Shown piece after piece: positions 31,356-56,595 of a stretch of 64,000 bases of DNA. Numbering within the stretch: the first letter of the stretch is position 1; each line of letters opens with the position of its first letter. The stretch lies in assembly GCA_963675665.1 (NCBI GenBank), contig OY776510.1:1920001-1984000 (forward strand). The letters run 5' to 3'. The DNA is from Spirochaetia bacterium. GTDB lineage: Bacteria > Spirochaetota > Spirochaetia > UBA9216. A program made the position numbers and the translations under genes. The notes below the pieces were generated by a model that was not told where the DNA came from, did not search any database, and worked only from the letters and a program-made list of their open reading frames with translations.

Positions 31356-31375
31356 GTAGGGAACAGGAGAAGGAA

Positions 31376-32251: not shown

Positions 32252-32281
32252 TCTGAAAGAAAGCAGTGATGCGTAGAGAGC

Positions 32282-32318: not shown

Positions 32319-32422
32319 CACCAGCGAAATTTTTAATTCAAGCATACGGTGATTACGGAAAAAGTTTTACTTCAACGGTTTCAGTCCGGGGGAGGTTTGG
32401 GGCTGATCTTGCCTGATTAATA

Positions 32423-34240
32423 CTATTTAATCAGGGGAAATTTTACAGTAAATCTGGTTCCGCCTTTAGGTATGTTTTCTGCTGTAATTTCCCCTTTAAA
32501 TTTTGTGATGGTATTGTAGCTGATATACAGCCCCATACCCATGCTCTGATTTCTTTTTTTATTGGAGGAGTAGAACGGCATGAATATAGTATTCATTTTC
32601 CCCTCTTCAATACCGGTTCCCGTATCTTCAAAAATGATCGCTACTTTATCATGTTCCTTATCGCTGTATTTGGTGCTGATGAGAAGTTCGCCTCCGTCCG
32701 GCATGGCTTCTATTGCATTGCGGATTAGATTGAGAAATACCTGTCTTATTTCTGTCTTGCTGGCATAAATTTCAAAAATCTGTTTTGAATCATCAACAAT
32801 AATTCTGACATTACTTTTCTTTGCATTGAATGTTAGAAGCATTACAACTCTTAGGAGCAGATCCGTAACATTGAAAACTTCAAGAGGGGCGTTCTCTTCT
32901 GTTGAGAAACCCATCAGGTTGCTGATAGTCTGGGTGATAACCTTGATCTCATCTTCAATTATTTCAATATCAGCTGTAAGTGAAGTTTCATTACAGTTAT
33001 ATTTCATAATCTCAATGATATTTCTGATTATCCCCAGAGGATGATTGATTTCATGAGCAACACCAGCCGCAAGCATCCCGACAGAAGCAAGTTTTTCATT
33101 CTGGATAATATGTTCTCTGAGTGATTCTTCTTCGGTAGTGTCTGTAAGTATAAGAATCTTCCCGATAGAGTTATTATCTTCCATTATCGAAAATGAAGTT
33201 ATATTTGCTATACGTTTGATTCCGTTGAAGAATATCTGGGTTTTAACTGTCTTTGGAGTTGCATCTGAATTCATCAGCGATGTTTCATACTCTTTGGGAA
33301 CGGTAAGAAGCGCCCTCATGGGTCGGTTAAGCAATTGGGAGGTTTTAATCTGAAAGTAATTTTCGGCATGCAGATTCAGAAATTTAATATTGTAGTTATT
33401 GTCGACAGCGATAAGTACTACAGGCAGATCTATCAAAATGGCCTGATTGTATTTTATCAGGTTATAAAAATCTTTATTTGATGTGATCGTATTATGATTC
33501 AGAACATGGCTGTAGAGAATTTTAAGCAGATTATATTTGTCAAGATTGCCGTAAAGATCTGTAAGTATTATTTCACCCTGTCTCAATACAGAAAGATTTG
33601 TCGTAATCGGCGGAATGTAATCAATATGATTTATAAGAAGCAGGATTACGCCTCCGTTTGAAGCGAGTGTCTTTATTATTGCAATAGTCTTGTTGAAATT
33701 ATCAGCTGTCAGTTTGGACAGCACTTCATCAAGTATAAGAACTTTAGGTTTGCAGAAAATGGATATAAGTATTTCCAGAAAAATCTTTTCTGATTCGCTC
33801 AAACTGCCGATTGGCGTCTCTGCAGTAAAATCAGTATCGTAATCTTTAAGAAATTTATTCACCTCTATATTATATGATTTTGAGTCAAAGACCTTGCTGT
33901 ATTTTTTAATCTGGATATAAATGAAAAATTGTTCGCCTACGGTTATGTTTTCAAGAAGAAATCTGCTGTCGGTTATTACTTCAATGCCCAGCCTTCTGGA
34001 TTCTTTTATTGTAAGATTTCTGTAGGATTTGCTGCCGATTCTTATGCGGCCAGTTGATGCTTTCAGACTGCCTTTAAGTATATTGCTGATCAGACTTTTA
34101 CCGGATTCCTTTTCTCCAAGAATTGTATGAATATCTCCGGGGTGGAGTATAATATTTAAAGGTTTGAGCTCTGTTTTTTGAGCGTTCTTTTTTTGTGGTA
34201 TATATGTAATATTTTCTATTGAAATATCGTCTTTGTTCAT
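32423..34240 (-). CDS. Soluble histidine kinase with N-terminal degenerate sugar-ABC ATPase domain, PAS, HisKA and HATPase
   Basis: ILGEKESGKS (Walker A), VLILDE (Walker B), PAS-like segment, LAAGVAHEINHPL (H box), NLIRNA, EDTGTGI and GMGL. No TM segment seen. Confidence 0.88.
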   Translation of the reverse strand: MNKDDISIENITYIPQKKNAQKTELKPLNIILHPGDIHTILGEKESGKSLISNILKGSLKASTGRIRIGSKSYRNLTIKESRRLGIEVITDSRFLLENITVGEQFFIYIQIKKYSKVFDSKSYNIEVNKFLKDYDTDFTAETPIGSLSESEKIFLEILISIFCKPKVLILDEVLSKLTADNFNKTIAIIKTLASNGGVILLLINHIDYIPPITTNLSVLRQGEIILTDLYGNLDKYNLLKILYSHVLNHNTITSNKDFYNLIKYNQAILIDLPVVLIAVDNNYNIKFLNLHAENYFQIKTSQLLNRPMRALLTVPKEYETSLMNSDATPKTVKTQIFFNGIKRIANITSFSIMEDNNSIGKILILTDTTEEESLREHIIQNEKLASVGMLAAGVAHEINHPLGIIRNIIEIMKYNCNETSLTADIEIIEDEIKVITQTISNLMGFSTEENAPLEVFNVTDLLLRVVMLLTFNAKKSNVRIIVDDSKQIFEIYASKTEIRQVFLNLIRNAIEAMPDGGELLISTKYSDKEHDKVAIIFEDTGTGIEEGKMNTIFMPFYSSNKKRNQSMGMGLYISYNTITKFKGEITAENIPKGGTRFTVKFPLIK

Positions 34241-35574
34241 ACATCGACCTTTTTAAGAGAAATCCTGTACCTGGTGATTTTCCTGTAAAGGGTAGTTCTG
34301 CTGATTCCAAGAGCTTTTGCAGTATCGATTTTGTTGTAATTATACTTCTGCAGAGCCAGTTCAATTCTCTCTCTATCAATTTCAGGTTCAGTTTCAATCG
34401 GGTTGAACTCCCTGGTTTTTACAGCAGGTTTCATGAATTCCGGAAGGCTGTCGACCCCTATAGTATCGTTCAGTGAAGTAGCGCAGGAATATGAAATAAT
34501 ATTTATCAGTTCGCGAATATTTCCAGGCCAGTCGTAATCCATCAGCTTGCCGAAGACATCGTCCTTAATGAAGATCTCTTTCTGGTAATCCCTGTTGTAT
34601 TTATCAACAATATTTTTTACCAGAAGCGGAATGTCGTCTTTACGCTCTCGCAGCGGAGGTATTGTGAAGATTCCGGTATTTAACCTGTAGAAAAGATCTT
34701 CCCTGAATGAATTCTGCTGTACCAGGGTATAAAGGTCCTTATTTGTAGCTGCAATAAACCTGACATCAACTTTAATTATTTCCTTGCCTCCGATTCTTCG
34801 CAGTTCCTTGTTTTGTATTGCGCGCAGGATCTTTGCCTGAAGCGCCATCGACATATCGCCAAGCTCATCAAGAAATAATGAGCTGTTATGTGAGCGCTCA
34901 AAAATTCCCTTATACTGTTTGTCTGCGCCGGTAAAAGCGCCTCTGTCATGTCCGAAAAGTTCATTATCAAGCAGTGATTCCGGAAAGGCGGCGCAGTTTA
35001 TTTTCTGCAGCTGCTGATTCCTCCTTAGTGAATTTGAATGAATGAATTCGGCAAGGAGCTCTTTTCCGGTGCCGCTTTCACCGTTAATAAGTGCCGGCAG
35101 ATCTGTGGAAGCATATAAGGAGGCTTTTTCAAGAAGTTCCAGCATCTTCCGGTTTCTGGTAATTATCCCGTGCGTATGCGAGAAGTATTTTTGAAGTTCG
35201 AACTGTTCGATATTATTATTGCAGTACTTCTCAATCAGGCTTACAAGGTGCTCAATTGAAATAGGCTTCTGTATATAGTCTACCGCACCGGCCTGCATGG
35301 ATATTACCGCTGTTGAGATGGTGCCGTAGGCCGTAATCATGATTACAGGAATTCTGGGATATTTGTCGGCAAATTTTAAAAGCAGATCCATTCCTGATTC
35401 TTCACCGAGCATAATATCAAGAAGTATCATATCTATTTGTTTATCCAACAGAATATTAAAAGCCGAACTGCCGTTTAATGCGCTGAAAGCATTATATCCC
35501 CTTATTTTTAATAATCTGGAAAGCGATATATTATGCATCTCCTGATCGTCGACGATGAGTATGTTCTGTTTCAT
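34237..35574 (-). CDS. Sigma54-dependent NtrC-family response regulator
   Basis: REC (ILIVDD, LLDIML, K), GESGTGKE, GAFTGA, LFLDE, WPGNIREL and Fis HTH. ATG 35574 follows CAGGAGG. Confidence 0.95.
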   Translation of the reverse strand: MKQNILIVDDQEMHNISLSRLLKIRGYNAFSALNGSSAFNILLDKQIDMILLDIMLGEESGMDLLLKFADKYPRIPVIMITAYGTISTAVISMQAGAVDYIQKPISIEHLVSLIEKYCNNNIEQFELQKYFSHTHGIITRNRKMLELLEKASLYASTDLPALINGESGTGKELLAEFIHSNSLRRNQQLQKINCAAFPESLLDNELFGHDRGAFTGADKQYKGIFERSHNSSLFLDELGDMSMALQAKILRAIQNKELRRIGGKEIIKVDVRFIAATNKDLYTLVQQNSFREDLFYRLNTGIFTIPPLRERKDDIPLLVKNIVDKYNRDYQKEIFIKDDVFGKLMDYDWPGNIRELINIISYSCATSLNDTIGVDSLPEFMKPAVKTREFNPIETEPEIDRERIELALQKYNYNKIDTAKALGISRTTLYRKITRYRISLKKVDV

Positions 35575-35584
35575 TAAATCCTCC

Positions 35585-35649
35585 TGAAACAATAATGTTT
35601 CACTTTGTGGTACATTATTGTTACGGTTGGTGGTACATTATTGTACCAC
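35585..35649. promoter_or_regulatory. Three tandem palindromic sites (candidate enhancer/UAS of the NtrC-type regulator)
   Basis: tgaaaca-ataa-tgtttca (35585), gtggtaca-ttat-tgttac (35607) and gtggtaca-ttat-tgtaccac (35630). Common ACA-N4-TGT core, about 22-23 bp period. Confidence 0.7.
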
Positions 35650-35774: not shown

Positions 35775-35790
35775 TGGCATGTTTGTTGCT
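35775..35790 (+). promoter_or_regulatory. Sigma54 -24/-12 promoter
   Basis: TGGCATGTTTGTTGCT with exact GG-N10-GC spacing, upstream of the SBP gene and divergent from a bEBP. Confidence 0.85.
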
Positions 35791-35877: not shown

Positions 35878-37167
35878 ATGAAATTAAGAAAGCAGTTGGT
35901 TCTTTTATTATGCTTTCTGTTGCTCGGAGCCGTCGTCTTTGCGACCGGTGATCAGGAAAGCAGCTCTGCTGATACAGCAGCAGCCGATTCAGATCTTCAT
36001 GAGATCTACCGGATCCTTCCGAAAGTACCTTTGTCAGGTGTTTTTGATCCTAACATGAAAGACCGATCCGGAATAGAAAAAGCATTTCCTGTTAAACCTA
36101 ATGATCCGGACAACATCGTAATTGGCTGGTCTGAAATAACACTTGCAAATCCCTGGTTTGTAGGCGTTTCGGATGAAGCACATCGTCTGGCTGAAAAATA
36201 CGGATACGAGTTGAAATTTCTTGTTGCTGATTACGATATTCAGAGACAGAGTCAGCACATTGATACTTTCATTACTCAGGATGTTGATATTATTGTTGTT
36301 GACCCGGTTGATATAATGGCTCCTGCTGCAGATATCAAGAGAGCTGTAGATGCCGGTATTCCTACGATATGTATAGGAACAGTACCGGACTATTCTGCTC
36401 CGATTCTCACAACTGTGATTCCCAATCCTTTTGAAAACGGATTTGCATCCGGTGAGTATATCGGTAAAACGTGGAGTGTTAATGAAGAAATCAATGCCGG
36501 GTATATCATCGGCGTTATGGGCAGTTCTACATCTGAAAGTCGGGGTTGTGGAGCAGTTTCCGGTATAGTTTATGGCAGGGCTCAGAAGCTGGGCGTTGAT
36601 ATGAGCAGAGAAGACGCCATGCTTCTGGGCTATAATCTGTTTGAAGAAATAAAAACAAAAGGTAAATTTTCCTATCCTAAACTTAAATTCAATGTTCTCG
36701 CCTGGGGTGTTGGTTCATGGACTGATGAAGGCGGAATGACAGCGGCCGAAGATATGATTACTGCTCATAAGGAAGATATGAATCTTATATTGGGTGGAAA
36801 TGATTTTATGGCAATGGGCGCTCTAAAGGCTGTTACCAACAATGGTCTTAAATCCCAGATTAAAGTAGCCGCCTGTGGGGCTGACGGGTTCAGGGAAGCG
36901 CTTGAACTGATTAAATCGGGAGACCTTATGTGTACTGGTCCATTTGCCGGAACAGCAGTTGGTGCGGCTGCAGTTGAACTGATTCACAAGATATTTGCTG
37001 AAGGTTATGACGCGGGTAATATGCCGATGGGTTCGTATTTCCCTGCTTCCGTAATTTCTCCGGAAACTATTGATGATTATTATGATCCGGACACTTCTAA
37101 TCCGTTTTATAAGCTGCAGCCTGTTCTTTTCAGATCCATTCCTGAAATACTGGCCAGCGGGAAATAA
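35878..37167 (+). CDS. Sugar ABC substrate-binding protein (RbsB/Peripla_BP_4 family), long form
   Basis: Signal peptide, IGWSEITLANPWF, Q.Q.ID.FI..DVD.IVV.P, GGNDFMAMGA and GADG. Confidence 0.88.
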   Translation: MKLRKQLVLLLCFLLLGAVVFATGDQESSSADTAAADSDLHEIYRILPKVPLSGVFDPNMKDRSGIEKAFPVKPNDPDNIVIGWSEITLANPWFVGVSDEAHRLAEKYGYELKFLVADYDIQRQSQHIDTFITQDVDIIVVDPVDIMAPAADIKRAVDAGIPTICIGTVPDYSAPILTTVIPNPFENGFASGEYIGKTWSVNEEINAGYIIGVMGSSTSESRGCGAVSGIVYGRAQKLGVDMSREDAMLLGYNLFEEIKTKGKFSYPKLKFNVLAWGVGSWTDEGGMTAAEDMITAHKEDMNLILGGNDFMAMGALKAVTNNGLKSQIKVAACGADGFREALELIKSGDLMCTGPFAGTAVGAAAVELIHKIFAEGYDAGNMPMGSYFPASVISPETIDDYYDPDTSNPFYKLQPVLFRSIPEILASGK

Positions 37168-37180
37168 TTGCAGTTTTTTG

Positions 37181-37211
37181 GAGTTCCGGCTGTAAATGCC
37201 GGAACTCTTTT
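37181..37211 (+). terminator. Stem-loop plus U tract after SBP gene
   Basis: gagttccggc-tgtaaat-gccggaactc-tttt. Confidence 0.7.
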
Positions 37212-37246
37212 GCAGGCAGGAGATTTTAGTTATGGGAGATTCAGCA

Positions 37247-38752
37247 ATGTACAATGAAACAATCAACTTTGTTGAAATGCGGGACATCTGTAAGCATTTC
37301 GGCGGTGTACAGGCTTTAAATAAGGTTTCATTCAGTGCCGGTAAAGGCGAAGTGCATGCTTTAATGGGAGAGAACGGCGCAGGGAAGTCTACCCTAATGA
37401 AAATTTTATCGGGGGCTCATTTAAAGGATTCCGGAGAGATAAAATTAGACAATGAAGTCGTTGATATCAATAGTCCCAGATGCAGTCACGAAAATGGAAT
37501 ATCCATCATATACCAGGAATTTACCCTTGCAAGGGATTTGACTGTTGCTGAGAATATTTTTATAGACAATCTTGGGAAAGGCCGTTCAATTATCGACTGG
37601 AAAACTCTGAATGCCAAAGCAGCAAAACTGCTTAACAAACTTGGATTCAATGATATTAATGTATCCAGGCCTGTTTCTGAACTGTCGGTCGGATATCAGC
37701 AGGTTGTGGAAATCTGCAAAGCTTTGTCCCGGGATTCCAAAGTAATTATTTTTGACGAACCGACTGCTGTTCTGACGGTAAATGAAGTCACAAAGCTTTT
37801 CGAGATAATCAATACGCTGAAGAAGCATGATGTATGCATTATTTATATCTCTCACAGACTGGAAGAAATATTTGAAATCTGTGATCGTATTACGGTTCTT
37901 AAAGACGGCGGATATGTCGATACAGTTTCAGTTAAAGATACAACCAACAATGCTCTCGTTAGAATGATGATTGGGCGTGACCTTAAAGAGTTTTTCCCAC
38001 CCCGAAATGTAAAAATAGGAGAAACGATCCTTTCGGTAAATAATCTTTCCGCCGGCAAAGCGGTTAGGGACGTATCATTTGAACTTCGCAAAGGTGAAGT
38101 CCTCGGATTTAACGGGCTTGTCGGGGCAGGCCGGACTGAAACAATGCGGGCTATATTCGGAGCAGACAGAATTGATTGCGGAGAAATTTACCTCAGAAAC
38201 AAGCTTGTAAAAATAAAGTCTCCAAAAGAGGCTGTTAAAATGGGTTTGGGCATGCTGCCTGAAGACAGAAAAAATCAGGGAGTTTTATTGGAGCAGTCGG
38301 TACGTGTGAATGCATCATTAAGCTTTCTCAACAGAATCAGCAATTCATTCGGTTTTATTGACGGAAAGAAAGAAAAAGAAATTGTAAATGATTTAATGAA
38401 AAAACTTTCCGTCAAAGCAGAGTCAATCGATATTGAGACTTCAAGTCTTTCAGGCGGAAACCAGCAGAAGGTTTCGCTGATGAAATGGCTCGGTTCAGGC
38501 TGTGATATTTTAATACTGGATGAACCTACACGCGGAGTTGATGTAGGGGCGAAAATAGAAATATATAAAGTAATAAATAAATTAGCTGAAGAAGGAGTGG
38601 CCATAATTATGATCTCATCAGAATTACCTGAAGTTATCGGGATGAGCGACAGGGCAATAATAATGAGACAGGGTGTGGTAATGGGTGAATGTGCTGAAGA
38701 TACTCTTACAGAGCACGGATGCATAGAACTCGCAATGGGAGTAAATGTATGA
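37247..38752 (+). CDS. Sugar ABC ATP-binding protein (RbsA/MglA family)
   Basis: GENGAGKST, FDEPT, SHRLEE, LSGGNQQK and DEPTRGVDVGAK. Confidence 0.95.
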   Translation: MYNETINFVEMRDICKHFGGVQALNKVSFSAGKGEVHALMGENGAGKSTLMKILSGAHLKDSGEIKLDNEVVDINSPRCSHENGISIIYQEFTLARDLTVAENIFIDNLGKGRSIIDWKTLNAKAAKLLNKLGFNDINVSRPVSELSVGYQQVVEICKALSRDSKVIIFDEPTAVLTVNEVTKLFEIINTLKKHDVCIIYISHRLEEIFEICDRITVLKDGGYVDTVSVKDTTNNALVRMMIGRDLKEFFPPRNVKIGETILSVNNLSAGKAVRDVSFELRKGEVLGFNGLVGAGRTETMRAIFGADRIDCGEIYLRNKLVKIKSPKEAVKMGLGMLPEDRKNQGVLLEQSVRVNASLSFLNRISNSFGFIDGKKEKEIVNDLMKKLSVKAESIDIETSSLSGGNQQKVSLMKWLGSGCDILILDEPTRGVDVGAKIEIYKVINKLAEEGVAIIMISSELPEVIGMSDRAIIMRQGVVMGECAEDTLTEHGCIELAMGVNV

Positions 38753-39765
38753 GTACAATAATAAACAGCGAAAGCAAAACAGGCAAAAAAATTGACATTG
38801 GTGCCTTGATAATAAAATATAATGCCTTTTTTATGCTTATAGTATTAATAATTGTATCCAGTTTTTTGTCAAAGTCGTTCCTGACTTCAGGTAATATTCT
38901 GAATATTCTTCGTCAGAACACCCCCCTGATGCTTGCAAGTCTCGGAATGCTTCTGGTAATTCTTACCGGTGGAATTGATCTGGCGGTAGGATCAATTGCA
39001 GCAGTCAGCTGCATGATGGTTTCAATCGCAATAGCCAAATGGAATTTCACGTCGGTTTTCGGACTTGTCCTCGCTATCCTGATTTCGGTATTAGTCGGAT
39101 TCCTTCTGGGTGCAGCCACCGGCTCTCTGGTTGCGTTTATGAGAATGGCTCCTTTTGTCGCTTCACTGTCCATGATGACTATCGGCAGGGGAATTGCATA
39201 CCTTCTGACAAACGGGCAGCCCCTCAGGCTTCCGATGGAACGTACTGCTAGCAATATTCTCAATGCAATAGGAAATTCAAAAGTACCTTTTATAAACCTG
39301 CCGTGGCCTATCCTGATTTCGATTATTGCTATTGTGATTCTGTTTCTGGTGATGAAATACACAACATTCGGCCGGCTGCTGATTGCAACCGGAAGTAATG
39401 AAACAGCCGTCCGCCTGGCAGGAATTACCGTTGAGAAGTATAAATTCTTTTCATATGCAATATGCGGAGGATTGTGTGCAGTATCGGGTATTCTTGTAAC
39501 CAGCCGTGCGGCTATCGGAACGCCTGCAACAGGTTTAAATCTCGAACTTGATGCAATAGCCGCCTGCGTTATCGGCGGGGCAAGCCTTTCCGGAGGAAAA
39601 GGTACCGTTGTAAACACGGTTATAGGCGTGCTGGTTCTGGGTCTGATCGGAAATATTATGAACCTTTTAAGTGTTCCGGCATACCCGCAGCAAATTATCA
39701 AGGGGCTGATAATCATAGTTGCAGTTTTTCTGCAGGGAGTAACTGATAAAAAGACTAGAGTTTAA
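38749..39765 (+). CDS. Sugar ABC permease (RbsC family)
   Basis: ILTGGIDLAVGS, G.NE.AVRLAG and ELDAIAACVIGGASLSGG.G. Confidence 0.93.
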   Translation: MSTIINSESKTGKKIDIGALIIKYNAFFMLIVLIIVSSFLSKSFLTSGNILNILRQNTPLMLASLGMLLVILTGGIDLAVGSIAAVSCMMVSIAIAKWNFTSVFGLVLAILISVLVGFLLGAATGSLVAFMRMAPFVASLSMMTIGRGIAYLLTNGQPLRLPMERTASNILNAIGNSKVPFINLPWPILISIIAIVILFLVMKYTTFGRLLIATGSNETAVRLAGITVEKYKFFSYAICGGLCAVSGILVTSRAAIGTPATGLNLELDAIAACVIGGASLSGGKGTVVNTVIGVLVLGLIGNIMNLLSVPAYPQQIIKGLIIIVAVFLQGVTDKKTRV

Positions 39766-39800: not shown

Positions 39801-40331
39801 ATGATTCACGAAAAAGAGGTTGTGAAGGATAGATTGATGGCAACTGCCAAAAGGATGGCTGTTGCCGCCAGAACTGCTCCCAAATGCATGGGAGTAGATA
39901 ATATATTTATTTCCATTCTTGAAGAAGACGAAATTACCGCTGTAGCTGAACATATGCAGAAGATGCACCGTGAAAAAATGGTTCCGGATTATTACATCAG
40001 GGATGCAGAGAATATTATGGCGGTTCAGATTATGCTGCTGATAGGCACAGATTATGTTGCTACCGGAGCTCCCTCCTGCGGCGCCTGCGGTTTTAGAGAT
40101 TGCGGACATAAGGAAAAGGCTGTTCCGTGTGCATTCAATACTGCTGATATGGGTCTCGCTGTCGGGTCTGCAGTCTCGATTGCGGCGGACGACAGAATTG
40201 ATAACCGGATAATGTTTTCTGTAGGCCAGGCGGTTATCGATCTGAAACTTATAGATAAAGATTTGAAGTTTATTTACGGAATACCTTTGAGTATAAGTTC
40301 AAAGAATCCGTTCTTTGACAGAGGCAAATAA
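39801..40331 (+). CDS. DUF2148-like ferredoxin-domain protein
   Basis: AARTAPK..G.D, CGACGF..C, C......D.G.AVGSA, DNRIMFSVG and S.SSKNPFFDR. Confidence 0.75.
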   Translation: MIHEKEVVKDRLMATAKRMAVAARTAPKCMGVDNIFISILEEDEITAVAEHMQKMHREKMVPDYYIRDAENIMAVQIMLLIGTDYVATGAPSCGACGFRDCGHKEKAVPCAFNTADMGLAVGSAVSIAADDRIDNRIMFSVGQAVIDLKLIDKDLKFIYGIPLSISSKNPFFDRGK

Positions 40332-40342
40332 CAGAGAGAAAT

Positions 40343-41377
40343 ATGAAGGCATTGGTTCTTGAAAAAAAAGGCGATATCAGGTTGCGGGATATTGATATAG
40401 AAGAAACTCTCGGCCCTGGAGACGTCAGAATATCACCGGTCAGCGTTGGTATCTGCGGCAGTGATATACATTACTATCTCGACGGTGAAATAGGTTCATT
40501 TACTGTCAACGCCCCGATGGTTCTTGGTCATGAGGCTTCCGGTGTAATTATCGAAACCGGTTCGGATGTACATAATCTGAAAGTGGGCGACAGGGTATGT
40601 ATTGAGCCGGGCATTCCTGATTGGTCGGGCAAAGCGTGCAGGGAAGGGTTTTATAATCTCGATCCGGGACTAGTTTTCTGGGCAACTCCGCCGTGGCACG
40701 GTTGTCTACGTGAAAATGTAGTTATGCCTGAATCGCTTGTTTACAGGTTGCCTGATAATGTCGGAAACGAAGAAGGCGCGATGGTTGAACCGCTTGCGGT
40801 CGGGGTACATGCATCGTCAAAGGCGAATATAAAACCGGGCGATATTGCTCTTGTGCTTGGGGCCGGAACAATCGGGTATATGACGGCATTTGCGGCCCTT
40901 GCCTCCGGGTGCAGCCAGGTGATCATTACTGATATTAAACGGGACAGGCTGTCGGCGGCGGAAGAATATGATTCTGTTCTTCCGGTATGCGTTGCCGACT
41001 CGGATCTGTCTGAAATGGTTAACGAAAAGACAGGGAACCGGGGATGCAATATTGTATTTGAAACAACAGGCAGTGCAAGGATTTATGACGATGTTGCTGA
41101 ATATATATGCCCGGGCGGGACATTTATCATAATCGGAACGCCGCCGTGTTCTGTCGGCGTGAATATCGGCGCGCTGCAGGTAAAAGAAGTAACTGTAAAA
41201 CCAATATTCAGGTATGCAAATGTATACGACAGGGCCCTTGCTTTAATCAGCAGCGGACATGTAAACGTTAAACCTCTGATAACCCACCGGTTCGGTTTTA
41301 ATGATAGTGTTGAAGCTTTTAAATTTGCAGCAACCCTGCCTCAGGGTGCAATAAAAACAATGATTAATTTTTCATAA
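40343..41377 (+). CDS. Zn-dependent polyol dehydrogenase (xylitol/sorbitol dehydrogenase-like)
   Basis: [35 protein letters not shown] and FRYAN.Y. Confidence 0.9.
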
Positions 41378-41390
41378 TAAGGAGATTGTA

Positions 41391-42557
41391 ATGAGTCAAT
41401 TCAGTTTTGTAATACCGGGAGAAGTTGTACTGGGCGCAGGTGTGGTAAACAAACTTGCTGAAATAGGAAAATCCTACGGAAGCAAAGCATACCTATGCAT
41501 GGATCCTTTTCTTGAGATCTCAGGAGTAGGGTCCGAGATTGAGGGCCTTCTAAAGAAAGACGGCGTTGATATAGTTAAATTCACGAAGGTTAAACCCAAC
41601 CCGAGTTGCCATGATATTGATGAAGGCGCTGATCTTTGCAGAAAAGAAAAATGTGATTTTATGGTTGCTGTCGGCGGAGGAAGCGCAATAGATACAGCAA
41701 AGGCAATTGCAATCCTCGCAATAAATCCCGGAAACAGCTGGGAGTATATTGCCCGTTCCGATCGTGAATTCAGAACCTTCAGTGAGAGTCTGCCTTTGAT
41801 TGCCGTACCTACTACAGCAGGAACAGGAACTGAAGTAACGCATTATTCAGTAATCAGCAACCCGGACATTCATGAGAAGGGATGTATTCATAACAAGGTC
41901 CTTGTTCCTGACTTCGCACTTGTTGACCCTGAACTTATGGTATCAAAACCCCCGAAACTTACTGCCTATACCGGTATTGATGCAATGTGCCATTCGCTGG
42001 AATCGTTTCTTAATGTAAATTCAACCCCGTTCCCGGATATGATAGCGCTTGAATCAGTAAGCCTTGTAGCAAGATACCTTCCCGAAGCGGTTGCAAACGG
42101 AACAAATATTGTTGCCCGTGAAAAGATGGCTTATGCAAGCACTCTCGGGGGTGTTGCTATTGCTCTGGCAGGAACAATACTGCCGCATGGTCTTGGCCAG
42201 CCGGTAAGCGGTCTTGTTGATATGCCTCACGGTGCAAGTATGGCTGCTTCATTGGGTCATATTATGGAAATATCCTATACAAGTAACATAGAAAAATTTG
42301 CAAGGCTTGCCGAATGTTTCGGAGAACCTCTTGACGGTTTGTCTACCTATGCAAAAGCCGAGATGAGTGTGGAATTTGTGCAGCGTCTGCTGAAAGATAC
42401 CGGCGCAGAAGTGACATTCGGAGAATACGGGCTTACTGAGGCCGATCTGGAAAAGACGGCTGAGATTGCCGTTAATAACTACTCATTTGATTTGAACAAC
42501 AGTCCTCTCAAGGTCTCAAAAGAGGAAATCATTGAAATATACAGAAATTGTCTATAG
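41391..42557 (+). CDS. Iron-containing alcohol dehydrogenase
   Basis: GGGSAIDTAK, PTTAGTGTE, D..CHSLE, H...Q and PHG. Confidence 0.92.
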   Translation: MSQFSFVIPGEVVLGAGVVNKLAEIGKSYGSKAYLCMDPFLEISGVGSEIEGLLKKDGVDIVKFTKVKPNPSCHDIDEGADLCRKEKCDFMVAVGGGSAIDTAKAIAILAINPGNSWEYIARSDREFRTFSESLPLIAVPTTAGTGTEVTHYSVISNPDIHEKGCIHNKVLVPDFALVDPELMVSKPPKLTAYTGIDAMCHSLESFLNVNSTPFPDMIALESVSLVARYLPEAVANGTNIVAREKMAYASTLGGVAIALAGTILPHGLGQPVSGLVDMPHGASMAASLGHIMEISYTSNIEKFARLAECFGEPLDGLSTYAKAEMSVEFVQRLLKDTGAEVTFGEYGLTEADLEKTAEIAVNNYSFDLNNSPLKVSKEEIIEIYRNCL

Positions 42558-42569
42558 GGAGCGTGCAGA

Positions 42570-43646
42570 ATGAAAGCAGCAATGTGGTTTAAAAGAGGTG
42601 ATATCAGGGTTATAGATAATGTTCAGGAACCTGAACCCGGCCCGGGACAGGTGAAAATAAAGGTTAAATGGTGCGGAATCTGCGGTTCGGATATTCATGA
42701 ATATACCGACGGTCCCATCAGTATCCCCGGCGACAAGCCGCATCCTGTAACCGGGGAAAAGGCCCCGGTAATTCTGGGCCATGAGTTTTCAGGCGATGTT
42801 GTTTCAGTCGGCAAAGGTGTTACGAAATTCAAAGCTGGCGACCGTGTTGCCGTAGAGCCGATTGTCAGGTGCGGGAAATGCAAGGCCTGTCTGGAAGGTC
42901 GTTACCACAACTGTATGAACCTTGGCTTTCACGGTATCTCCGGCGGCGGCGGCGGTTTTGCCGATTACACTGTATTCACGGAAGAGTTTATCCATAAGCT
43001 TCCCGACGAAATCAGTTATGAACAAGGCGCTACTATTGAACCTTTTTCGGTCGGAATGCACGCAGTACTGAAGGCGGACTTCAGGGCCGGCGGTGAGGCT
43101 CTTGTTCTGGGGGCCGGTCCGATCGGTATAGGTGTTATAGCATGTCTGAAAGCTGCGGGAGCACGCAAGATTGTATGTATGCAGAGAAAGTCCGTCAAAC
43201 AGCAGTATGCAATAGAGGCCGGCGCGGACGTAGTACTTGATCCGAATGAATGCAATGTAGCTGAAGAAATTAAGAAATTAACCGATGGCAACGGTATTGA
43301 ATATGTCTTTGAAACAACAGCAGCCCCGGTAGGCTTTGAAATGGCGCTGGACAGCGTAATGAAAGCGGGAACCATAACAGTGGTCAGTTTCTGGGATAAG
43401 GAAGTATCTTTCAACCTGAACCGGATGATGCTTACCGAAGTAAAAATAATCGGTTCAATCTGTTTTAATGATAATTTTCCGACTGTAATGAAGATGATGG
43501 CTGACAAGAGGATTAATACAGGATCGTATGTCACCAGGAAAATTCATCTTGATAAAATTATGGAAGAAGGTTTCAGCATCCTGATGGGACCGGAGAAGAA
43601 AGAGAATCTGAAAATTCTTGTAACTCCGGATTTGGCGCTGCTATGA
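42570..43646 (+). CDS. Zn-dependent dehydrogenase, 2,3-butanediol dehydrogenase-like
   Basis: [15 protein letters not shown]...PHP.TG...P..LGHEFSG, CxxCxxC, GGGGF and GAGPIG. Confidence 0.88.
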   Translation: MKAAMWFKRGDIRVIDNVQEPEPGPGQVKIKVKWCGICGSDIHEYTDGPISIPGDKPHPVTGEKAPVILGHEFSGDVVSVGKGVTKFKAGDRVAVEPIVRCGKCKACLEGRYHNCMNLGFHGISGGGGGFADYTVFTEEFIHKLPDEISYEQGATIEPFSVGMHAVLKADFRAGGEALVLGAGPIGIGVIACLKAAGARKIVCMQRKSVKQQYAIEAGADVVLDPNECNVAEEIKKLTDGNGIEYVFETTAAPVGFEMALDSVMKAGTITVVSFWDKEVSFNLNRMMLTEVKIIGSICFNDNFPTVMKMMADKRINTGSYVTRKIHLDKIMEEGFSILMGPEKKENLKILVTPDLALL

Positions 43647-44689
43647 GTAAAAATACTAAATGCATGAAACAGGCAGTAATGATAAAACCCGGGGAAATCC
43701 GGTTCAGGGAAGTAGATATCCCTGAGATAAACAATAACCAGGTGCTGATCAGGATTCATGAAATCGGAATATGCGGCTCGGATGTCCATGTTTATCACGG
43801 AAAACATCCGACAACAGATTATCCGGTTGTGCAGGGGCATGAAGTAAGCGGTGAAGTGGTTGAAACGGGAGCGAACGTTAAAAGGGTTAAACCCGGTGAT
43901 CGGGTAATAATTCGGCCCCAGATCGTATGCGGAAAATGTATGCATTGCCTTGAGGGTAATTATAACATCTGTGAAGAACTTAAGGTTCTTGGATTCCAGG
44001 CAGACGGTGCCGGTTCTGAATATTATGCTTCAGACGAGGAATACCTGATAAAAATGCCGGATGGACTTTCTTATTCAGGGGGTACTATTGCGGAGCCTTT
44101 GGCGGTAGGTATTCATGCTCTTGAAAAAGCCGGCGGTGTAAGCGGGTTGAATATATTGATAATAGGGGCAGGCCCAATCGGGAATTTAACAGCGCAGGCT
44201 GCCGGAGCAAAAGGTGCTTCCGCCGTGATGATTTCCGATATAAGCGCAAATCGTTTAAAACTGGCTGCAGCTTGCGGTATTGATTTCACTCACAACGCTG
44301 AAAGAGAAGAACTGGGTTCAGCGCTTATTAAGAATTTCGGTTATAAAAAGGCTGATATTATATTCGATTGCGTGGGTTCTGAAGCAAGTCTTGGGGTCTG
44401 TATAAAAAATGCAAGAAAAGGTACCGGAATTATTAATGTCGGTGTGTATGAAGGCGAGATCCTGGCCGACATGAGCAAGGTTCAGGACAATGAGTCAAAG
44501 CTGTCGGGCACTCTCATGTATACCGAAAAGGACATGCTTGAGGCGTTAGCCCTTCTTTCGTCGGGTTCAATCGATTATGACAGTTTAATTACCAGTAAGT
44601 TCCCATTTTCCGAATATCCTGAGGCGTATAAACACCTTGATGCAAACCGTGATGCCGAGATGAAAATTATTATCGACTTATTTAATTAA
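43643..44689 (+). CDS. Zn-dependent medium-chain dehydrogenase
   Basis: GICGSDVH, GHEVSG, CGKCMHC..G....C and GAGPIG. Confidence 0.9.
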   Translation: MSKNTKCMKQAVMIKPGEIRFREVDIPEINNNQVLIRIHEIGICGSDVHVYHGKHPTTDYPVVQGHEVSGEVVETGANVKRVKPGDRVIIRPQIVCGKCMHCLEGNYNICEELKVLGFQADGAGSEYYASDEEYLIKMPDGLSYSGGTIAEPLAVGIHALEKAGGVSGLNILIIGAGPIGNLTAQAAGAKGASAVMISDISANRLKLAAACGIDFTHNAEREELGSALIKNFGYKKADIIFDCVGSEASLGVCIKNARKGTGIINVGVYEGEILADMSKVQDNESKLSGTLMYTEKDMLEALALLSSGSIDYDSLITSKFPFSEYPEAYKHLDANRDAEMKIIIDLFN

Positions 44690-44716
44690 TGTACTTTTAT
44701 ATAGGGAGTATATCTG

Positions 44717-45484
44717 GTGATCAGCAAAGAATATAAAGCCGGGTTCAGGCTTGACGGAAAAACAGCAGTAATTACAGGCGGTGCCTCGGGGATTGGATAT
44801 GAAACAGCAAAACTGTTCGTGGAAAACGGGGCAAAAATATATTTGCTGGATTTCCAACGGGAAAAAGCCGCAAAAGCTGCCGGAGAAATAAAAAATGCTT
44901 CTAGTGCTTTCGTTGATGTGACGGATCCTTCTTCCGTAAGCGGGGTAATTGACTCGATAATTGAAAAAACGGGAGGGATTGATATACTTGTTAACTGTGC
45001 CGGAATAGGTGATATAGACAAAGCTGAAAATTTCTCTCCCGACTCATGGCGGCGGGTAATTAATACAAACCTTAACGGCACTTTCTTTATGTCGCAGCGA
45101 GTTGGTAAAGAAATGATCAGAATCGGTAACGGCGGGAAAATAATCTGTCTTGCATCACAGGCCGGAATAGTAGCTATTGATAAACATGCAGCCTACAGCG
45201 CAAGCAAATCCGGTGTTATATCCGTTGTAAAATCGCTTGCATATGAATGGGGAAAATACGGTATACAGGTGAATGCCATATCGCCTACCGCCACCGAGAC
45301 CCCGATGATCAAGGGATACTGGGATGAAGGCGAGGTCCATGAGAATGCAATCAGCAACACACCTGCCGGAAGATATTGCAAGCCGGCTGAAATCGCTGCT
45401 GCTGCACTTTTCCTCGCATCCGACTCGGCAAACATGATCACCGGAGCTAATCTTGTAATCGACGGCGGATTTACGATCCATTAA
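44717..45484 (+). CDS. Short-chain dehydrogenase (GolD/DthD polyol-dehydrogenase-like)
   Basis: TGGASGIG, NCAG, SQAG, YSASK, VNAISPT and IDGG. Confidence 0.9.
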   Translation: MISKEYKAGFRLDGKTAVITGGASGIGYETAKLFVENGAKIYLLDFQREKAAKAAGEIKNASSAFVDVTDPSSVSGVIDSIIEKTGGIDILVNCAGIGDIDKAENFSPDSWRRVINTNLNGTFFMSQRVGKEMIRIGNGGKIICLASQAGIVAIDKHAAYSASKSGVISVVKSLAYEWGKYGIQVNAISPTATETPMIKGYWDEGEVHENAISNTPAGRYCKPAEIAAAALFLASDSANMITGANLVIDGGFTIH

Positions 45485-45544
45485 TTTATCAGTGTACAAA
45501 GATACGAACAATATTCTCAATTTTAATTCAGAAGGGAGAAACAA

Positions 45545-46573
45545 ATGAAAGCGGCAGTATTAACTGAATTTAATAAAATAGAAATAATTGATAAAGTCCG
45601 GCCTTCGATAAGTGACGATGAAGTTCTTGTAAAGGTTAAATACAACGGAATCTGCGGCACAGATCTGCATGTTATGCAGGGACATCACCCTGCGGCCGTT
45701 CCGCCTCTTGTTATGGGACATGAATTCAGCGGGACGGTTGAAAAAAAGGGAAAACATGTCGGTGATGAAATAAAAATCAGAGACCGGGTCGTTGTTCAGC
45801 CGTATGAATCCTGCGGCGAATGTGAGCCGTGTAAATCAGGATGCGAGAACGTCTGCCGTGAGTTGAAGATCTTCGGAGTTCACAGGGACGGTGCATATCA
45901 GGAATATGTTAATGTAAAGGCGTCGCGGCTTTTCAGGCTGGATGATTCAATTTCTGATATTGCAGCTGCACTTATTGAGCCGCTGGCTGTTGCTGTTCAT
46001 GATGTAAAAAAGAGCGGTTTGAAGATTGGCGGTTCAGTTATCGTAATAGGCGGAGGCCCGATCGGTTTGCTTATTGCTGTTGTTGCAGGAATTAATGGCG
46101 CTTCGAAGATCGCTATCAGTGAGATAAATCCGGCACGTATTAAAAAAGCACGGCAACTGGGATTCCAGGTGATTAATCCTGCAGAAGAGAACCTTGCCGA
46201 TAAAGCATATAAGATGACTGACGGCCGAGGTTTTGACGCCGTATTCGAGGTTTCGGGCAGCCGGCCCGGAACAGAAGCGATGACTATGCTTGCCAAAACC
46301 AGCGGAACAATTGTAATTGTCGGGATCCCTCCGGAAAAACATCCTGTTGATACAGACACCGTTTTCAAGAAAGAATTGAATATAGTCGGAGTCAGACTTT
46401 ACTCTAAGGTAGATTTTCAGGCTGCCGTTGATATCATGAAGAATGAAGAAAACCGCAGGAAGCTGATGGAGCTTGTATCGGCTGAGTATCCGCTGGAGCA
46501 GTTGACTGAAGCAATTGCTTACCTGCGGAACAGCAGTGATGCGTACAAGGTCCTGATAAAGATTGGGGAGTAG
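45545..46573 (+). CDS. Zn-dependent medium-chain dehydrogenase
   Basis: GICGTDLH, GHEFSG, CGECEPC..G....C and GGGPIG. Confidence 0.9.
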   Translation: MKAAVLTEFNKIEIIDKVRPSISDDEVLVKVKYNGICGTDLHVMQGHHPAAVPPLVMGHEFSGTVEKKGKHVGDEIKIRDRVVVQPYESCGECEPCKSGCENVCRELKIFGVHRDGAYQEYVNVKASRLFRLDDSISDIAAALIEPLAVAVHDVKKSGLKIGGSVIVIGGGPIGLLIAVVAGINGASKIAISEINPARIKKARQLGFQVINPAEENLADKAYKMTDGRGFDAVFEVSGSRPGTEAMTMLAKTSGTIVIVGIPPEKHPVDTDTVFKKELNIVGVRLYSKVDFQAAVDIMKNEENRRKLMELVSAEYPLEQLTEAIAYLRNSSDAYKVLIKIGE

Positions 46574-46622
46574 TAAGTATTTTTTCCCTTAAAAATCTGA
46601 AATGTTAAAATCTATTTAATTC

Positions 46623-47568
46623 ATGCTTACGATGCAGCGTTTTCCGTGGGAACAGGGAGCAGCCTCCCAGGCGGCGCTTGAAATAGGAGATTTCACGACT
46701 GCAAAACTGCTTGCCCACGACGCTGTTCTCAGGCAGTCGCCTGACGGTCGCCTGAGCACAGCTTTTTACCGCGACGATATCGCTATCTTCGGCGATAATA
46801 TCACGGTTACCGACTCATCGGCAAACGGGGAGGCGGTGCTCTACTTCGCCGATAAAGATAAGGACGACGCCCTTCGCAAAGCTGCCGACTTACAGCCTAC
46901 ATGGCTTGCCGAATGCGCGCCGAGAACTAAAGGCGGGGTACTCTACCATGTTAAAAACAACAGACAAGTTTGGGTAGATTCGATATTCATGGCCCTGCCG
47001 TTCATGGTTTTAATGGGTGCAGACCTCGAAGCAGAGCAGCCGTTTGACGGTTTCTACCGTATTCTGCATGATTCCGAAACAAGCCTGCTCTCACACATCT
47101 GGGATGAGGCAACCGGAGACTTCGCCCACAGGGATTTCTGGGATGTGGGCAACGGATGGGCTGCGGCGGGCATGGCCAAGATAATCCGCTTTCTGCCGGA
47201 CTCCGAAGATTTATTTAAAACAAAGACAATCGGAATGGTAACGGATATAGTAGATGCAGTACTGAAATACAGGAACGACAAATATTTATTCAACAATATC
47301 ATAGATCGTCCTGAAACATTCGTTGAAGTAAACCAGGCTCAAATGATTTGCACACGATCTTTTCCGGTGTTTCGGAGGGCTGGATGAATGATTCCTATGC
47401 CGATGTAGCAATTAAAATCCGGACTGCCGTACTGGAAAACGTCGATGAGCTAGAGTTAGTTCATAACCTCTGAGGCTCGCAACCTTCGCGGAACCGGGGA
47501 CTGCTGTCGAAGGCCAGGCGTTTTTCCTCCTGATGGAAGCGGCCTACGCGAGGTATTCTGAACAGTAA
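46623..47568 (+). pseudogene. Disrupted GH88/GH105-family unsaturated glycuronyl hydrolase
   Basis: MQR..WEQG, WVDSIFM..P and HIWD....FW..GNGWAAAG. Frameshift near 47350 continues as HTIFSGVSEGW...VHNL, then TGA 47471-47473, then a second frameshift to PGTAVEGQAFFLLMEAAY* (TAA 47568). Confidence 0.8.
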
Positions 47569-47804: not shown

Positions 47805-47820
47805 TGGTACAGGAATTGCA
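47805..47820 (+). promoter_or_regulatory. Sigma54 -24/-12 promoter of the GRE operon
   Basis: TGGTACAGGAATTGCA with GG-N10-GC spacing. Candidate UAS tgtaa-gttat-ttaca at 47682-47696. Confidence 0.75.
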
Positions 47821-54779: not shown

Positions 54780-54792
54780 TTTACGGGGTAAT
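54768..54792. repeat. Perfect palindrome formed by the last four codons of two convergent genes
   Basis: attaccccgtaa-t-ttacggggtaat. Both proteins end ITP* with identical codons ATT ACC CCG TAA. Confidence 0.9.
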
Positions 54793-56595
54793 AACAGGGA
54801 GCTCGATCAGAAATTGAGCTCCCTTCCCGATATCCCTGCCGATTGTGATGTTCCCCTCATGTTTTGTGATAATGCTATGGATAATTGACAAACCCATACC
54901 CAGATGGGTCCCGGTTTTTGTTTTTGTCGAGAAAAAAGGAAGAAAAATATCGCTTATAATATCTGTCGAAATTCCGGGGCCATTATCCTCAAATGTTAAT
55001 TTTAGTTTATCATTAGTATTCTCAAGAGTGATATTGATCTCTCCATTTCCTGTCAGAACATCATTACTGTTTCTTATTAAATTTAACATAATTTGTTTAT
55101 ATTCGTTTTGGGTTATCGGACAAAATGCAAGATCCTCAAGTTTATTTAGAAGATTGATTCTCAACCCGTCATATTGCGGATTATGTTTGATAAAGCTTAT
55201 TATTTGGGCTGTTGTTTCATAAATATTGACATAGTCGTTCTTTGTCGGGTTTTTATCCGAAAAGGATATAAGGTTGTCGACTACATTCTCAATGAAATCC
55301 AACTCCTCTCTTATATGATCATACAGTTCAATATCTTCAGACTTTGTTCTTTTAAACAACAGCAGGTTAGAGAAACTGTTCAGGGCCTCGAGAGAGTTGT
55401 TAATTTCATGGGCAATGCCTGCGGACAGAATACCAATTGAGGAAAGATTCTGTGCGAGGATAAGTTTTTCCTGCAAAGTCACAAGTTCAGAAACATCTTC
55501 AATTAAAAAAATATTCCCGATATTCATACTGTCTTCTGTAATCGGTAAAATTTTTATATTTACACTCGTCTGTCTGTTCCCTATTATCATCGGGACATGG
55601 TAAAAACTGTGAATTTGATTTGTATTTGATGATTCTTCAATTATATGAAGAAATGAATTATTATTCTTTGCAAAAAAATCATTAAGCCGGCTTTTCAGGT
55701 AGTCTTCATTTTCAATATTAAAATATTTCTTGAAATAGTTGTTTACCATTATAATTTCCATTTGACGATTTGTAACAATTATATTTGACGGAAGGCTTTC
55801 AAGAATTGCTTCGTTGAATTTCAGGAAATGATAAAATGACTTATTTAATTCTTCCATATTATATGTAAGCGAAGGATTTGTGTATGTAAGTCTGATAAGA
55901 TTAATTTTGTCAATGCTGTCTATTTTATCCGAAAAGATTATTTCGCCGTTTTTTATTATACTGACTCTTTCGGCGATATCGTAAATATAACTTATTTTTG
56001 TTGTAAAGAATAATACTGATCCACCTTTTTGGGAGTAATCCTTAAGTATCTCGTAAACCCTGACAAGATCCGCCGAGTTGATTTTGGAAAACATCTCGTC
56101 AATAATCAGCAATTCAGGAACAGGTTCCAGCTTGTTTAATAATTCAAGAATTGCAATATCTGATTGATTAAGATTTTTAAGCTGTGCAAAGGGGTCGATA
56201 TCAAAACCATACTTGTGAAAGTCTCTTTTTGCCATACTCACAAATCTTTTTCTGCTGCTGAAGCCTATTATATGTTTGCTAAACTTGTTGTGGTACAGAT
56301 ACTCCCCGGCTATAAAGGCCTGATTAAGAATAAGATGCTGGGGTACCATGGTTATTGACGGTTTATTTTTTATTCTGGCAAGTTTAGAATGGGTTTGCCC
56401 CCGGTATGTAAATGTTCCGGAAGAATTCAGCAATTGATTTTTCAGCAGTTTTCCCAGCAATGTTTTTCCGGCTCCGGATTCTCCGATTATTGCATGAACC
56501 TCGCCCCTGTTTAAATCAAGATTTATTATATTCAGATACATTTTATCTTTAAAATGGACTTTTATATTGTTCAGACTTAATAACGGATTAATCAT
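54781..56595 (-). CDS. Soluble histidine kinase with N-terminal degenerate sugar-ABC ATPase domain, PAS, HisKA and HATPase
   Basis: GEVHAIIGESGAGKT, MVPQ, LLIIDE, PAS-like segment, SAGIAHEINNSL, NLIRNS, EDNGPGI and GMGL. ATG 56595 overlaps the regulator stop (ATGA). Confidence 0.88.
   Translation of the reverse strand: MINPLLSLNNIKVHFKDKMYLNIINLDLNRGEVHAIIGESGAGKTLLGKLLKNQLLNSSGTFTYRGQTHSKLARIKNKPSITMVPQHLILNQAFIAGEYLYHNKFSKHIIGFSSRKRFVSMAKRDFHKYGFDIDPFAQLKNLNQSDIAILELLNKLEPVPELLIIDEMFSKINSADLVRVYEILKDYSQKGGSVLFFTTKISYIYDIAERVSIIKNGEIIFSDKIDSIDKINLIRLTYTNPSLTYNMEELNKSFYHFLKFNEAILESLPSNIIVTNRQMEIIMVNNYFKKYFNIENEDYLKSRLNDFFAKNNNSFLHIIEESSNTNQIHSFYHVPMIIGNRQTSVNIKILPITEDSMNIGNIFLIEDVSELVTLQEKLILAQNLSSIGILSAGIAHEINNSLEALNSFSNLLLFKRTKSEDIELYDHIREELDFIENVVDNLISFSDKNPTKNDYVNIYETTAQIISFIKHNPQYDGLRINLLNKLEDLAFCPITQNEYKQIMLNLIRNSNDVLTGNGEINITLENTNDKLKLTFEDNGPGISTDIISDIFLPFFSTKTKTGTHLGMGLSIIHSIITKHEGNITIGRDIGKGAQFLIELPVITP

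Follow-up and report, generated by a model that had tools for sequence, protein, structure and literature searches.

The 64,000-nucleotide window analysed here (Spirochaetia bacterium assembly GCA_963675665.1, contig OY776510.1, positions 1,920,001 to 1,984,000 of the forward strand) contains, at 32423-35574 on the minus strand, two overlapping genes that encode a histidine kinase with an N-terminal nucleotide-binding domain (NBD) of the ATP-binding cassette (ABC) importer type and a sigma-54-dependent response regulator. The first-pass annotation of this DNA was given for the whole span; the kinase, termed HK1 (605 amino acids), lies inside it, at 32423..34240, and the span also covers the regulator gene at 34237-35574. 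The stop codon of the regulator overlaps the start codon of HK1 (ATGA), and within the longest open reading frame of the regulator (34237-35592) translation probably begins at the ATG at 35574, which has AGGAGG upstream. HK1 is a soluble protein comprised of an ABC NBD, a linker, PAS, HisKA, and HATPase_c. It is distinct from the tandem-NBD motor ATPases of CUT2-type sugar importers, as a single NBD of ~245 residues is followed by PAS and kinase domains and the gene sits in a regulator operon.

The NBD of HK1 spans residues 1-245 (33506..34240, minus strand, as for all segments of HK1), and Pfam, NCBIfam, and a phylogenetic tree identify it as a single NBD of the type found in the N-terminal halves of CUT2 ATPases. 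ABC_tran is matched at residues 25-173 (E 2.3e-17, 64.3 bits, cut-off 25), in keeping with the first-pass alignment by eye of the first ~245 residues to the N-terminal NBD of the neighbouring ATPase, which was reproduced with MAFFT. In NCBIfam, residues 25-256 align to the N-terminal half of YtfR, LsrA, and AlsA (E 1.9e-27 to 1e-25), and the best match of residues 258-603 is AtoS (E 8.4e-58, below its cut-off); none of the NCBIfam matches of HK1 reached an equivalog cut-off. HisKA (389-449) and HATPase_c (496-603) are both above their Pfam cut-offs, with weak PAS matches between them and the NBD (residues 266-372, E 0.017-0.07) that are stronger in paralogs of HK1.

An AlphaFold2 model of HK1, built on 141 sequences, has a mean pLDDT of 88.5. 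The NBD is compact, with pLDDT above 90 over most of its length, and is followed by a linker of low confidence (246-255, pLDDT <50) and an N-cap helix (253-271), which together occupy 33428..33505. The helix is very conserved between the NBD and PAS across the family, with the consensus FYxLxKYNEAILxxLP. The PAS domain, assigned from the weak Pfam matches, the model, and Foldseek, is modelled at residues 272-368 (33137..33427) with a five-stranded sheet at 275-367, and is the least conserved part of the protein across the family. The kinase core (32432..33136) consists of long DHp/HisKA helices at 369-443, carrying H396, and a catalytic (CA) domain at 454-603. In Foldseek searches, the C-terminal two thirds of HK1 best match the LOV-kinase YF1 (4gcz, E 1.8e-24), and the N-terminal 240 residues match the NBDs of LptB and MJ1267 with TM-scores of 0.74-0.87 normalised to the target (0.86 for LptB, 6mbn, with a root mean squared deviation of 2.8 Å). 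His396, Asn508, Asp539/Gly541/Gly543, and Gly568/Gly570, belonging to the H, N, G1, and G2 boxes, are invariant in the 141 aligned sequences. No membrane segment was found in HK1, where the most hydrophobic 19-residue windows fall within the confidently folded cores of the NBD and PAS. The order of PAS, HisKA, and HATPase behind the NBD, with no membrane segment, is therefore as first annotated.

The regulator matches REC, Sigma54_activat (E 1.2e-62), an AAA lid, and HTH_8 in Pfam. It has the NtrC-family order of REC, AAA+ with GAFTGA, and Fis-type helix-turn-helix, and both rpoN and a -24/-12 promoter are present in the genome.

HK1 belongs to a large family. The genome is closed as a single contig of 5.15 Mb and encodes eight full-length paralogs, the others being 26-33% identical to HK1, and 20 further loci were found in 14 related genomes. 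A profile of the paralogs, run against 1.84 billion cluster representatives, gave 150 listed matches of at least 378 bits each, nearly all of them 590-650 residues long and matched end to end; at least 131 are full-length representatives of clusters at 50% identity. These 131, the eight paralogs, and two close homologs make up the 141-row family alignment used throughout. With a profile of the NBD-PAS region, full matches in frames of ~600 residues were found in 16 of the 41 nearest genomes (its own included), across several families of the class, and, at E ≤ 1e-68, in 12 out of a phylum-wide sample of 400 other genomes, where four candidates were scored per genome and copy numbers are thus lower bounds. 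The names given to such proteins in databases are generic, for example 'ATP-binding cassette domain-containing protein' in Oceanispirochaeta sp. M1 or 'sensor histidine kinase AtoS'. The fusion itself is intact in an independent 43,579-nt contig, obtained from a run belonging to another study, which spans 32314-35700 with 18 substitutions and no gap, and so is not an artefact of assembly.

It is exceedingly improbable, then, that the fusion was created by assembly or annotation, or that the NBD is a decaying remnant without function. The loss of the Q-loop Gln and the displacement of the H-loop His in the HK1 copy could be read as decay. Opposing this are the eight paralogs in a single-contig genome, the 20 loci in 14 related genomes, the at least 131 full-length cluster representatives, the independent contig, the conservation of Walker A and B in ~95% of members, and the confidently modelled NBD fold. 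As far as sequence data reach, this reading is refuted; neither an assembly artefact nor a failure to match ABC models, two of the three outcomes named at first pass as fatal to the proposal, was found.

The nucleotide-binding motifs of HK1 were read from the MAFFT alignment with the three CUT2 ATPases of the window. Walker A (GEKESGKS, with Lys48) and Walker B (VLILDE, with Asp171-Glu172) are intact. Asp91 takes the place of the Q-loop Gln, Asn204 occupies the canonical H-loop position and is followed directly by a His (205), and LSESE stands in place of the LSGGQ signature. Of the two losses first annotated, that of the Q-loop Gln therefore stands, and the H-switch His is displaced by one residue. 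Copy 2 of the system in the window (HK2) keeps the Q-loop Gln and has lost the H-loop His. Across the family, the Walker A Lys is present in 135 of 141 members, the Walker B Asp in 134, and the catalytic Glu in 122, compared with 105 for the Q-loop Gln and 88 for the H-loop His. All five residues occur together in 70 members, and a GG signature in none of the 141.

The same positions were compared in the transporter ATPases of this genome. In their N-terminal halves, the Walker A Lys, Q-loop Gln, Walker B Asp, catalytic Glu, and H-loop His are each present in 70/70, and the GG signature in 0/70. The C-terminal halves carry the GG signature (LSGGN) in 69/70, with the Q-loop Gln and the H-loop His each in 0/70, the Walker A Lys in 8/70 (Arg in 49), the Walker B Asp in 57/70, and the catalytic Glu in 51/70. 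The CUT2 ATPases of the genome are thus all built for one consensus ATP site, with examples in the window at 37196-38752, 48928-50439, and 60625-62154. As none of the 70 N-terminal halves has the GG signature, the degenerate signature of the kinase NBD was inherited from an N-half ancestor; it is not a new impairment, since the transporter N-halves lack the GG as well and their C-halves supply it. The change that followed the fusion is a relaxation of the Walker side. The retention of Lys, Asp, and Glu, far above what a dead domain would show, alongside relaxed Gln and His indicates that nucleotide binding is under clear selection and hydrolysis less so. Judged by these residues, the HK1 NBD probably still binds ATP and in this copy hydrolyses little or none of it, and an NBD homodimer would have no consensus ATP site. 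The first-pass description of the NBD as impaired in hydrolysis accordingly suits HK1 and does not extend to the family, half of whose aligned members (70/141) keep all five residues.

Profiles built for this analysis count ~70 tandem-NBD CUT2 ATPases, 94 permeases, and 88 binding proteins in the genome. In a FastTree phylogeny of 70 N-halves, 70 C-halves, and 41 kinase NBDs, the C-halves form one side of a branch with support of 100. All 41 kinase NBDs, together with one long-branched and compositionally odd N-half, form a single clade (support 99), with the remaining N-halves as its sister group. The odd N-half belongs to a tandem CUT2 ATPase at genome C1:2672702-2674216 (minus strand), and its position is due either to long-branch attraction or to kinship with the lineage that donated the NBD. 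Identity between the kinase NBDs and the transporter ATPases of the genome is only 25-29%, and the neighbouring ATPase is no exception; this low identity and the single clade rule out recent, repeated fusion from the neighbouring ATPase. The tree instead points to a single, ancient capture of the N-terminal half of a CUT2 importer ATPase, followed by duplication. The kinase NBDs thus share family and fold with the N-terminal NBDs of ATPases of the RbsA, XylG, AraG, YtfR, and LsrA type, and likewise keep Walker A and B and lack the GG signature. They differ from them in being single, in their fusion to PAS and kinase domains, in the relaxed Gln (105/141) and His (88/141) that are each 70/70 in the N-halves, and in being encoded with a regulator and not in a transporter operon.

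Divergent from the HK1 pair on the plus strand lies a CUT2 importer (35878..39765; Pfam, and RbsB/AraG/RbsC-like in NCBIfam) consisting of a binding protein (35878-37167), a tandem-NBD ATPase (37196-38752), and a single permease gene of the BPD_transp_2 family (38719-39765). Genes on the same strand at 39801..47387 encode a DUF2148 protein, four Zn-dependent dehydrogenases, an Fe-dependent alcohol dehydrogenase, an SDR, and a GH88-like protein; judged by spacing alone, they would be co-transcribed with the importer. These are probably genes of polyol or sugar-alcohol catabolism, and the substrate of the operon is probably a polyol or related sugar. A sigma-54 type -24/-12 element, TGGCATGTTTGTTGCT, is located at 35775..35790 on the plus strand, 88 bp before the start codon of the binding protein, with one mismatch to TGGCAC-N5-TTGCW. 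A repeat search further revealed overlapping inverted repeats with the half-site GTGGTACATTATTGT at 35588..35649, ~125-185 bp upstream of the promoter, which are a candidate enhancer for activator binding.

This arrangement recurs across the family. The regulator is directly upstream of the kinase in 8/8 loci of this genome and in 19/19 related loci with upstream sequence, one further locus being cut there. Six of the regulator-kinase pairs of this genome are divergent from an importer operon that encodes a binding protein, a CUT2 ATPase, and a permease. With GG and GC fixed and at least 9 of 11 consensus bases required, a -24/-12 element faces the neighbouring operon in seven of the eight loci, and in the eighth, copy 2, the element is at 47805. 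Contig ends truncate two of the 20 related loci; a CUT2 operon adjoins 16 of the 18 assessable ones and seven of the eight in this genome (23/26 in total), and both related loci without one are orthologs of a glycyl-radical-enzyme case described below. None of the kinase loci lies beside a BPD_transp_1 system, though the genome has 55 such permease matches. Conversely, only eight of the ~70 CUT2 systems have an NBD-PAS-kinase. HK1 and its regulator very probably constitute a two-component system, which activates the CUT2 importer and catabolic operon from its divergent sigma-54 promoter. The coupling of the kinase to a sigma-54 activator divergent from a sugar ABC operon, as first proposed, holds, with a good -24/-12 promoter at 35775, and the survey of neighbourhoods and domain architectures that was called for has placed 23 of 26 loci beside CUT2 operons and found at least 131 full-length clusters.

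Copy 2 (54781..57911, minus strand) consists of a regulator (56592-57911) and the NBD-PAS-kinase HK2 (54781-56610). It is found at the 3' end of a CUT2 operon, tail-to-tail with a second CUT2 operon (47859-54779), which is preceded by the sigma-54 type element TGGTACAGGAATTGCA at 47805..47820 (plus strand). This second operon encodes a CUT2 binding protein, ATPase, and permease together with a glycyl radical enzyme (808 residues, PFL2/glycerol-dehydratase family) and its activase. At genome positions 4315416-4320915, a paralogous glycyl-radical-enzyme operon that lacks a transporter adjoins another NBD-kinase. That kinase, HK_4312 (4312120-4313949), diverges from genes for two dehydrogenases, a glycyl radical enzyme, and an activase, and no ABC genes were found within ~9 kb of it. 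In one related genome (G040), the CUT2 operon next to the NBD-kinase has a single-NBD ATPase (275 residues, L041:5323-6150, minus strand) with a canonical LSGGQ and all catalytic motifs, in place of the usual tandem; a stand-alone C-type partner NBD was considered there and ruled out, the ATPase being a canonical single NBD.

Both regulator-kinase pairs of the window are markedly AT-rich, with a GC fraction of 0.38-0.39 at 32001-36000 and 0.35 at 54001-58000, compared with 0.42-0.50 in their neighbours and 0.433 in the genome. Sigma-54 regulators also occur near CUT2 operons with other kinases, of 739 and 680 residues, at genome C1:611201-615000 and 2119000-2123262, which indicates that CUT2 operons in this organism are controlled by kinases without an NBD as well. 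Between a CUT2 operon and the regulator of copy 2, a 174-residue open reading frame (58153-58677, minus strand) has no Pfam or NCBIfam match. On the other side of HK1, an excisionase-family helix-turn-helix gene and an alpha/beta hydrolase gene (30894-32251, plus strand) separate the kinase from selA and may mark a mobile-element boundary. The genes selB (SelB-type elongation factor) and selA (selenocysteine synthase) at 27649-30742 (minus strand) indicate selenoprotein synthesis. At 18061-22689 (plus strand), a Bmp/PnrA-type (nucleoside-like) ABC importer operon is followed by genes for a MerR regulator, a dehydrogenase, an FGGY kinase, and a DeoC-type aldolase.

The position of such a kinase beside an importer suggests that the cell reads the transporter directly. 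The proposal advanced here, a tentative one whose probability falls somewhat short of even, is that the NBD of the kinase sits on the importer permease, with the transporter acting as the receptor. On a fraction of the homodimeric permeases, the two NBDs of a kinase dimer would occupy the place of the motor ATPase at the cytoplasmic coupling helices. Docking of a loaded binding protein would then shift the conformation of the permease and alter the spacing of the ATP-bound NBDs, and the short linker and conserved N-cap helix would transmit this change to the PAS dimer and to the DHp helices. The resulting shift in the balance of kinase and phosphatase activity would lead to phosphorylation of the regulator and induction of the importer operon. 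In its fullest form, which is conceivable though rather doubtful, the cell would hold eight such plugged-in receptors in parallel, with kinase dimers replacing the motor on a subset of cognate permeases and bound, unhydrolysed ATP at sites that lack a signature serving as a latch for the signalling state.

Four observations were counted in favour of docking: the association with CUT2 systems only, the retention of the ATP-binding residues, the conserved helix between the NBD and PAS, and a prediction of the complex. The position of the helix matches that of the N-cap helix of YF1-like PAS-kinases, and by analogy it could carry the spacing of the NBDs into the PAS dimer. Prediction of NBD residues 1-255 with two copies of the permease gave an ipSAE of 0.59, compared with 0.00 for the best of three controls, and was rated as weak support. 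The runs agreed in at least 91% of contacts, with a partner pLDDT of at least 79. The mark used for these predictions was reached by 116 of 157 solved complexes and by 2 of 215 mismatched pairs; among those that reached it, 18 of the 157 solved complexes and both mismatched pairs scored 0.60 or less. Complexes of NBDs with permeases have already been solved structurally, and the pass may consequently reflect likeness to these, not binding. The multimer prediction called for at first pass thus separates the pair from its controls and may at the same time show likeness only. The segment after the Q-loop, which lines the groove for the coupling helix, is no less conserved than other regions, with a ratio relative to the N-halves of 0.76 compared with 0.67-1.02. 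No region-specific loss or retention was detected in this comparison, which is a rough one, as it sets kinases from many organisms against N-halves from one genome.

Several results weigh against docking on a particular permease. The kinase NBD is no more like the ATPase of its own operon than it is like other ATPases (p 0.67 for N-halves and 0.64 for C-halves), while the control for this test, the N-half compared with the C-half of the same ATPase, gave p 0.002. Restricted to the Q-loop and helical region, the test gave p 0.32, at a power too low for its control to pass (p 0.15). These tests started from 28 loci, of which L014, L031, L034, L036, and L044 were dropped as no ATPase was found and L041 for its single-NBD ATPase, and the 22 remaining pairs were collapsed at >60% NBD identity to 16. 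Mantel correlations of distance matrices, calculated for 16 orthogroup representatives, separate a signalling block (NBD-core 0.71, NBD-REC 0.71, REC-AAA 0.72) from a transporter block (permease-ATPase 0.62, permease-binding protein 0.46). Between the two, NBD-permease reaches 0.32, no higher than core-permease (0.39) or REC-permease (0.31), and NBD-ATPase gives the smallest value of all (0.11). The kinase and its NBD therefore have a common history, with no sign that the NBD is tuned to its particular permease. In addition, one orthogroup, comprising 3 of the 26 loci (HK_4312, L034, and L036), has no ABC transporter within ~9 kb, and the linker between the NBD and PAS is predicted to be flexible. 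Every adjacent transporter has its own ATPase, with which the kinase would have to compete for the permease, and no locus with a permease and binding protein but lacking a motor ATPase was seen among the 26 examined. Finally, with ~70 CUT2 systems per cell, specific docking would require specificity determinants, and none were detected. The lack of tuning would not be a problem for docking if the interface were generic and specificity came from elsewhere.

These same results bear on a different explanation, in which the NBD has lost all contact with transporters and, as an ATP-binding module in the cytoplasm, determines the geometry of the dimer or gates the kinase according to adenylate state. 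The variable PAS domain would bind the imported sugar or a metabolite, and the system would sense the substrate inside the cell and simply regulate the importer next to it. This is a realistic possibility, if on balance a somewhat improbable one. It would account for an NBD that co-varies with the kinase and regulator and not with the permease or ATPase, for the missing cognate-specific likeness to the operon ATPase, and for the orthogroup without a nearby transporter. A ligand-specific module is expected to be variable, as PAS is, and the relaxation of Gln and His relative to the transporter N-halves is also in line with this explanation. Moreover, any regulator of CUT2 operons would be expected to adjoin them. 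What such a module leaves unexplained is why a CUT2-type NBD is kept for ATP binding when the kinase domain already binds ATP, and why all 23 adjacent transporters are of the CUT2 type despite the 55 BPD_transp_1 permease genes; the complex prediction, too, leans weakly towards docking.

Alternatively, the kinase NBD could pair with the transporter ATPase itself, an N-type half and a C-type LSGGNQQ half forming a consensus ATP site, and so read the turnover of the motor. The two halves are complementary, the N-halves having all of Lys, Gln, Asp, Glu, and His and no GG and the C-halves having GG in 69/70, and the kinase NBD keeps the N-type pattern. However, the C-half is covalently tied to its own N-half and is not free to pair, and none of the examined loci encodes a stand-alone C-type half. 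In G040, the ATPase has one NBD only, carries a canonical LSGGQ, and is able to homodimerise alone, and the correlation between NBD and ATPase distances is the lowest of all those measured. Pairing of this kind is accordingly quite unlikely.

HK1 was compared with known systems in which kinases or activators are controlled by, or alongside, transporters. The PAS-HisKA-HATPase_c core is common to HK1 and to kinases of the NtrB/AtoS class that work with NtrC-type regulators, and the two are alike in their REC-Sigma54_activat-HTH_8 regulator and in a -24/-12 promoter with upstream inverted repeats. The input differs, being an ABC NBD in HK1, neither a transmembrane or periplasmic sensor nor one controlled by PII. 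An importer NBD subunit is already known to signal in the MalK-MalT system, where it reports the idleness of the transporter to a transcription activator. There, the working motor subunit sequesters the activator by direct protein contact, and neither a kinase nor a fusion is involved.

In Bce systems, the ABC transporter BceAB is the sensor for a kinase that controls the synthesis of the transporter itself (PMC4513084, PMC9169098, bioRxiv 10.1101/2020.02.28.969956). The likeness of HK1 to this flux sensing by BceAB and BceS/BceR is one of logic only, as the sensing parts are not homologous. The Bce kinase is a separate membrane protein with two transmembrane helices that associates with the permease of an exporter-type resistance transporter, a permease with a large extracellular domain, and is paired with an OmpR-type regulator, whereas HK1 is soluble, carries a covalently fused importer NBD, and is associated with a BPD_transp_2 permease and a sigma-54 regulator. 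In PstSCAB-PhoU-PhoR phosphate signalling, the state of an ABC importer is relayed to the PAS domain of a kinase, with PhoU bridging the transporter and the PAS of PhoR (PMC13577022, PMC9239213). There, the NBD (PstB), adaptor (PhoU), and kinase are separate proteins, whereas in HK1 the NBD and PAS-kinase are one polypeptide. PhoU is not among the Pfam-annotated neighbours of the kinase loci, in a survey that included no search aimed at PhoU-like genes.

A full-text search found no published description of an ABC NBD fused to a histidine kinase in the libraries covered, which leave subscription journals largely outside; the first-pass remark that no kinase of this architecture had been characterised holds to that extent. 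In the usual picture, a histidine kinase senses by means of ligand-binding domains of its own, whether periplasmic, membrane, or cytoplasmic, or by way of a separate accessory transporter (Bce, Pst/PhoU, DctA/DcuS). Among known links between a transporter and a kinase, covalent fusion of an importer NBD would be the most direct.

The architecture and regulatory wiring of the HK1 system are solid. Should the NBD instead prove to be a cytoplasmic module without contact to any transporter, the family would still put an ABC NBD to a use not described before, that of a regulatory input domain that binds ATP. If docking on the permease is true, the importer becomes a dedicated transmembrane receptor for the extracellular sugar held by its binding protein, which would explain how a soluble kinase with no membrane segment of its own can sense the outside of the cell and report extracellular sugars. 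The system is also tractable for an open question on ABC transporters, namely how the conformation of a permease reaches its NBDs, as its parts are defined and natural variation is available in the eight copies of one genome and in at least 131 sequence clusters. With docking, ABC importers could further be wired to gene expression after the natural, modular template of this family.

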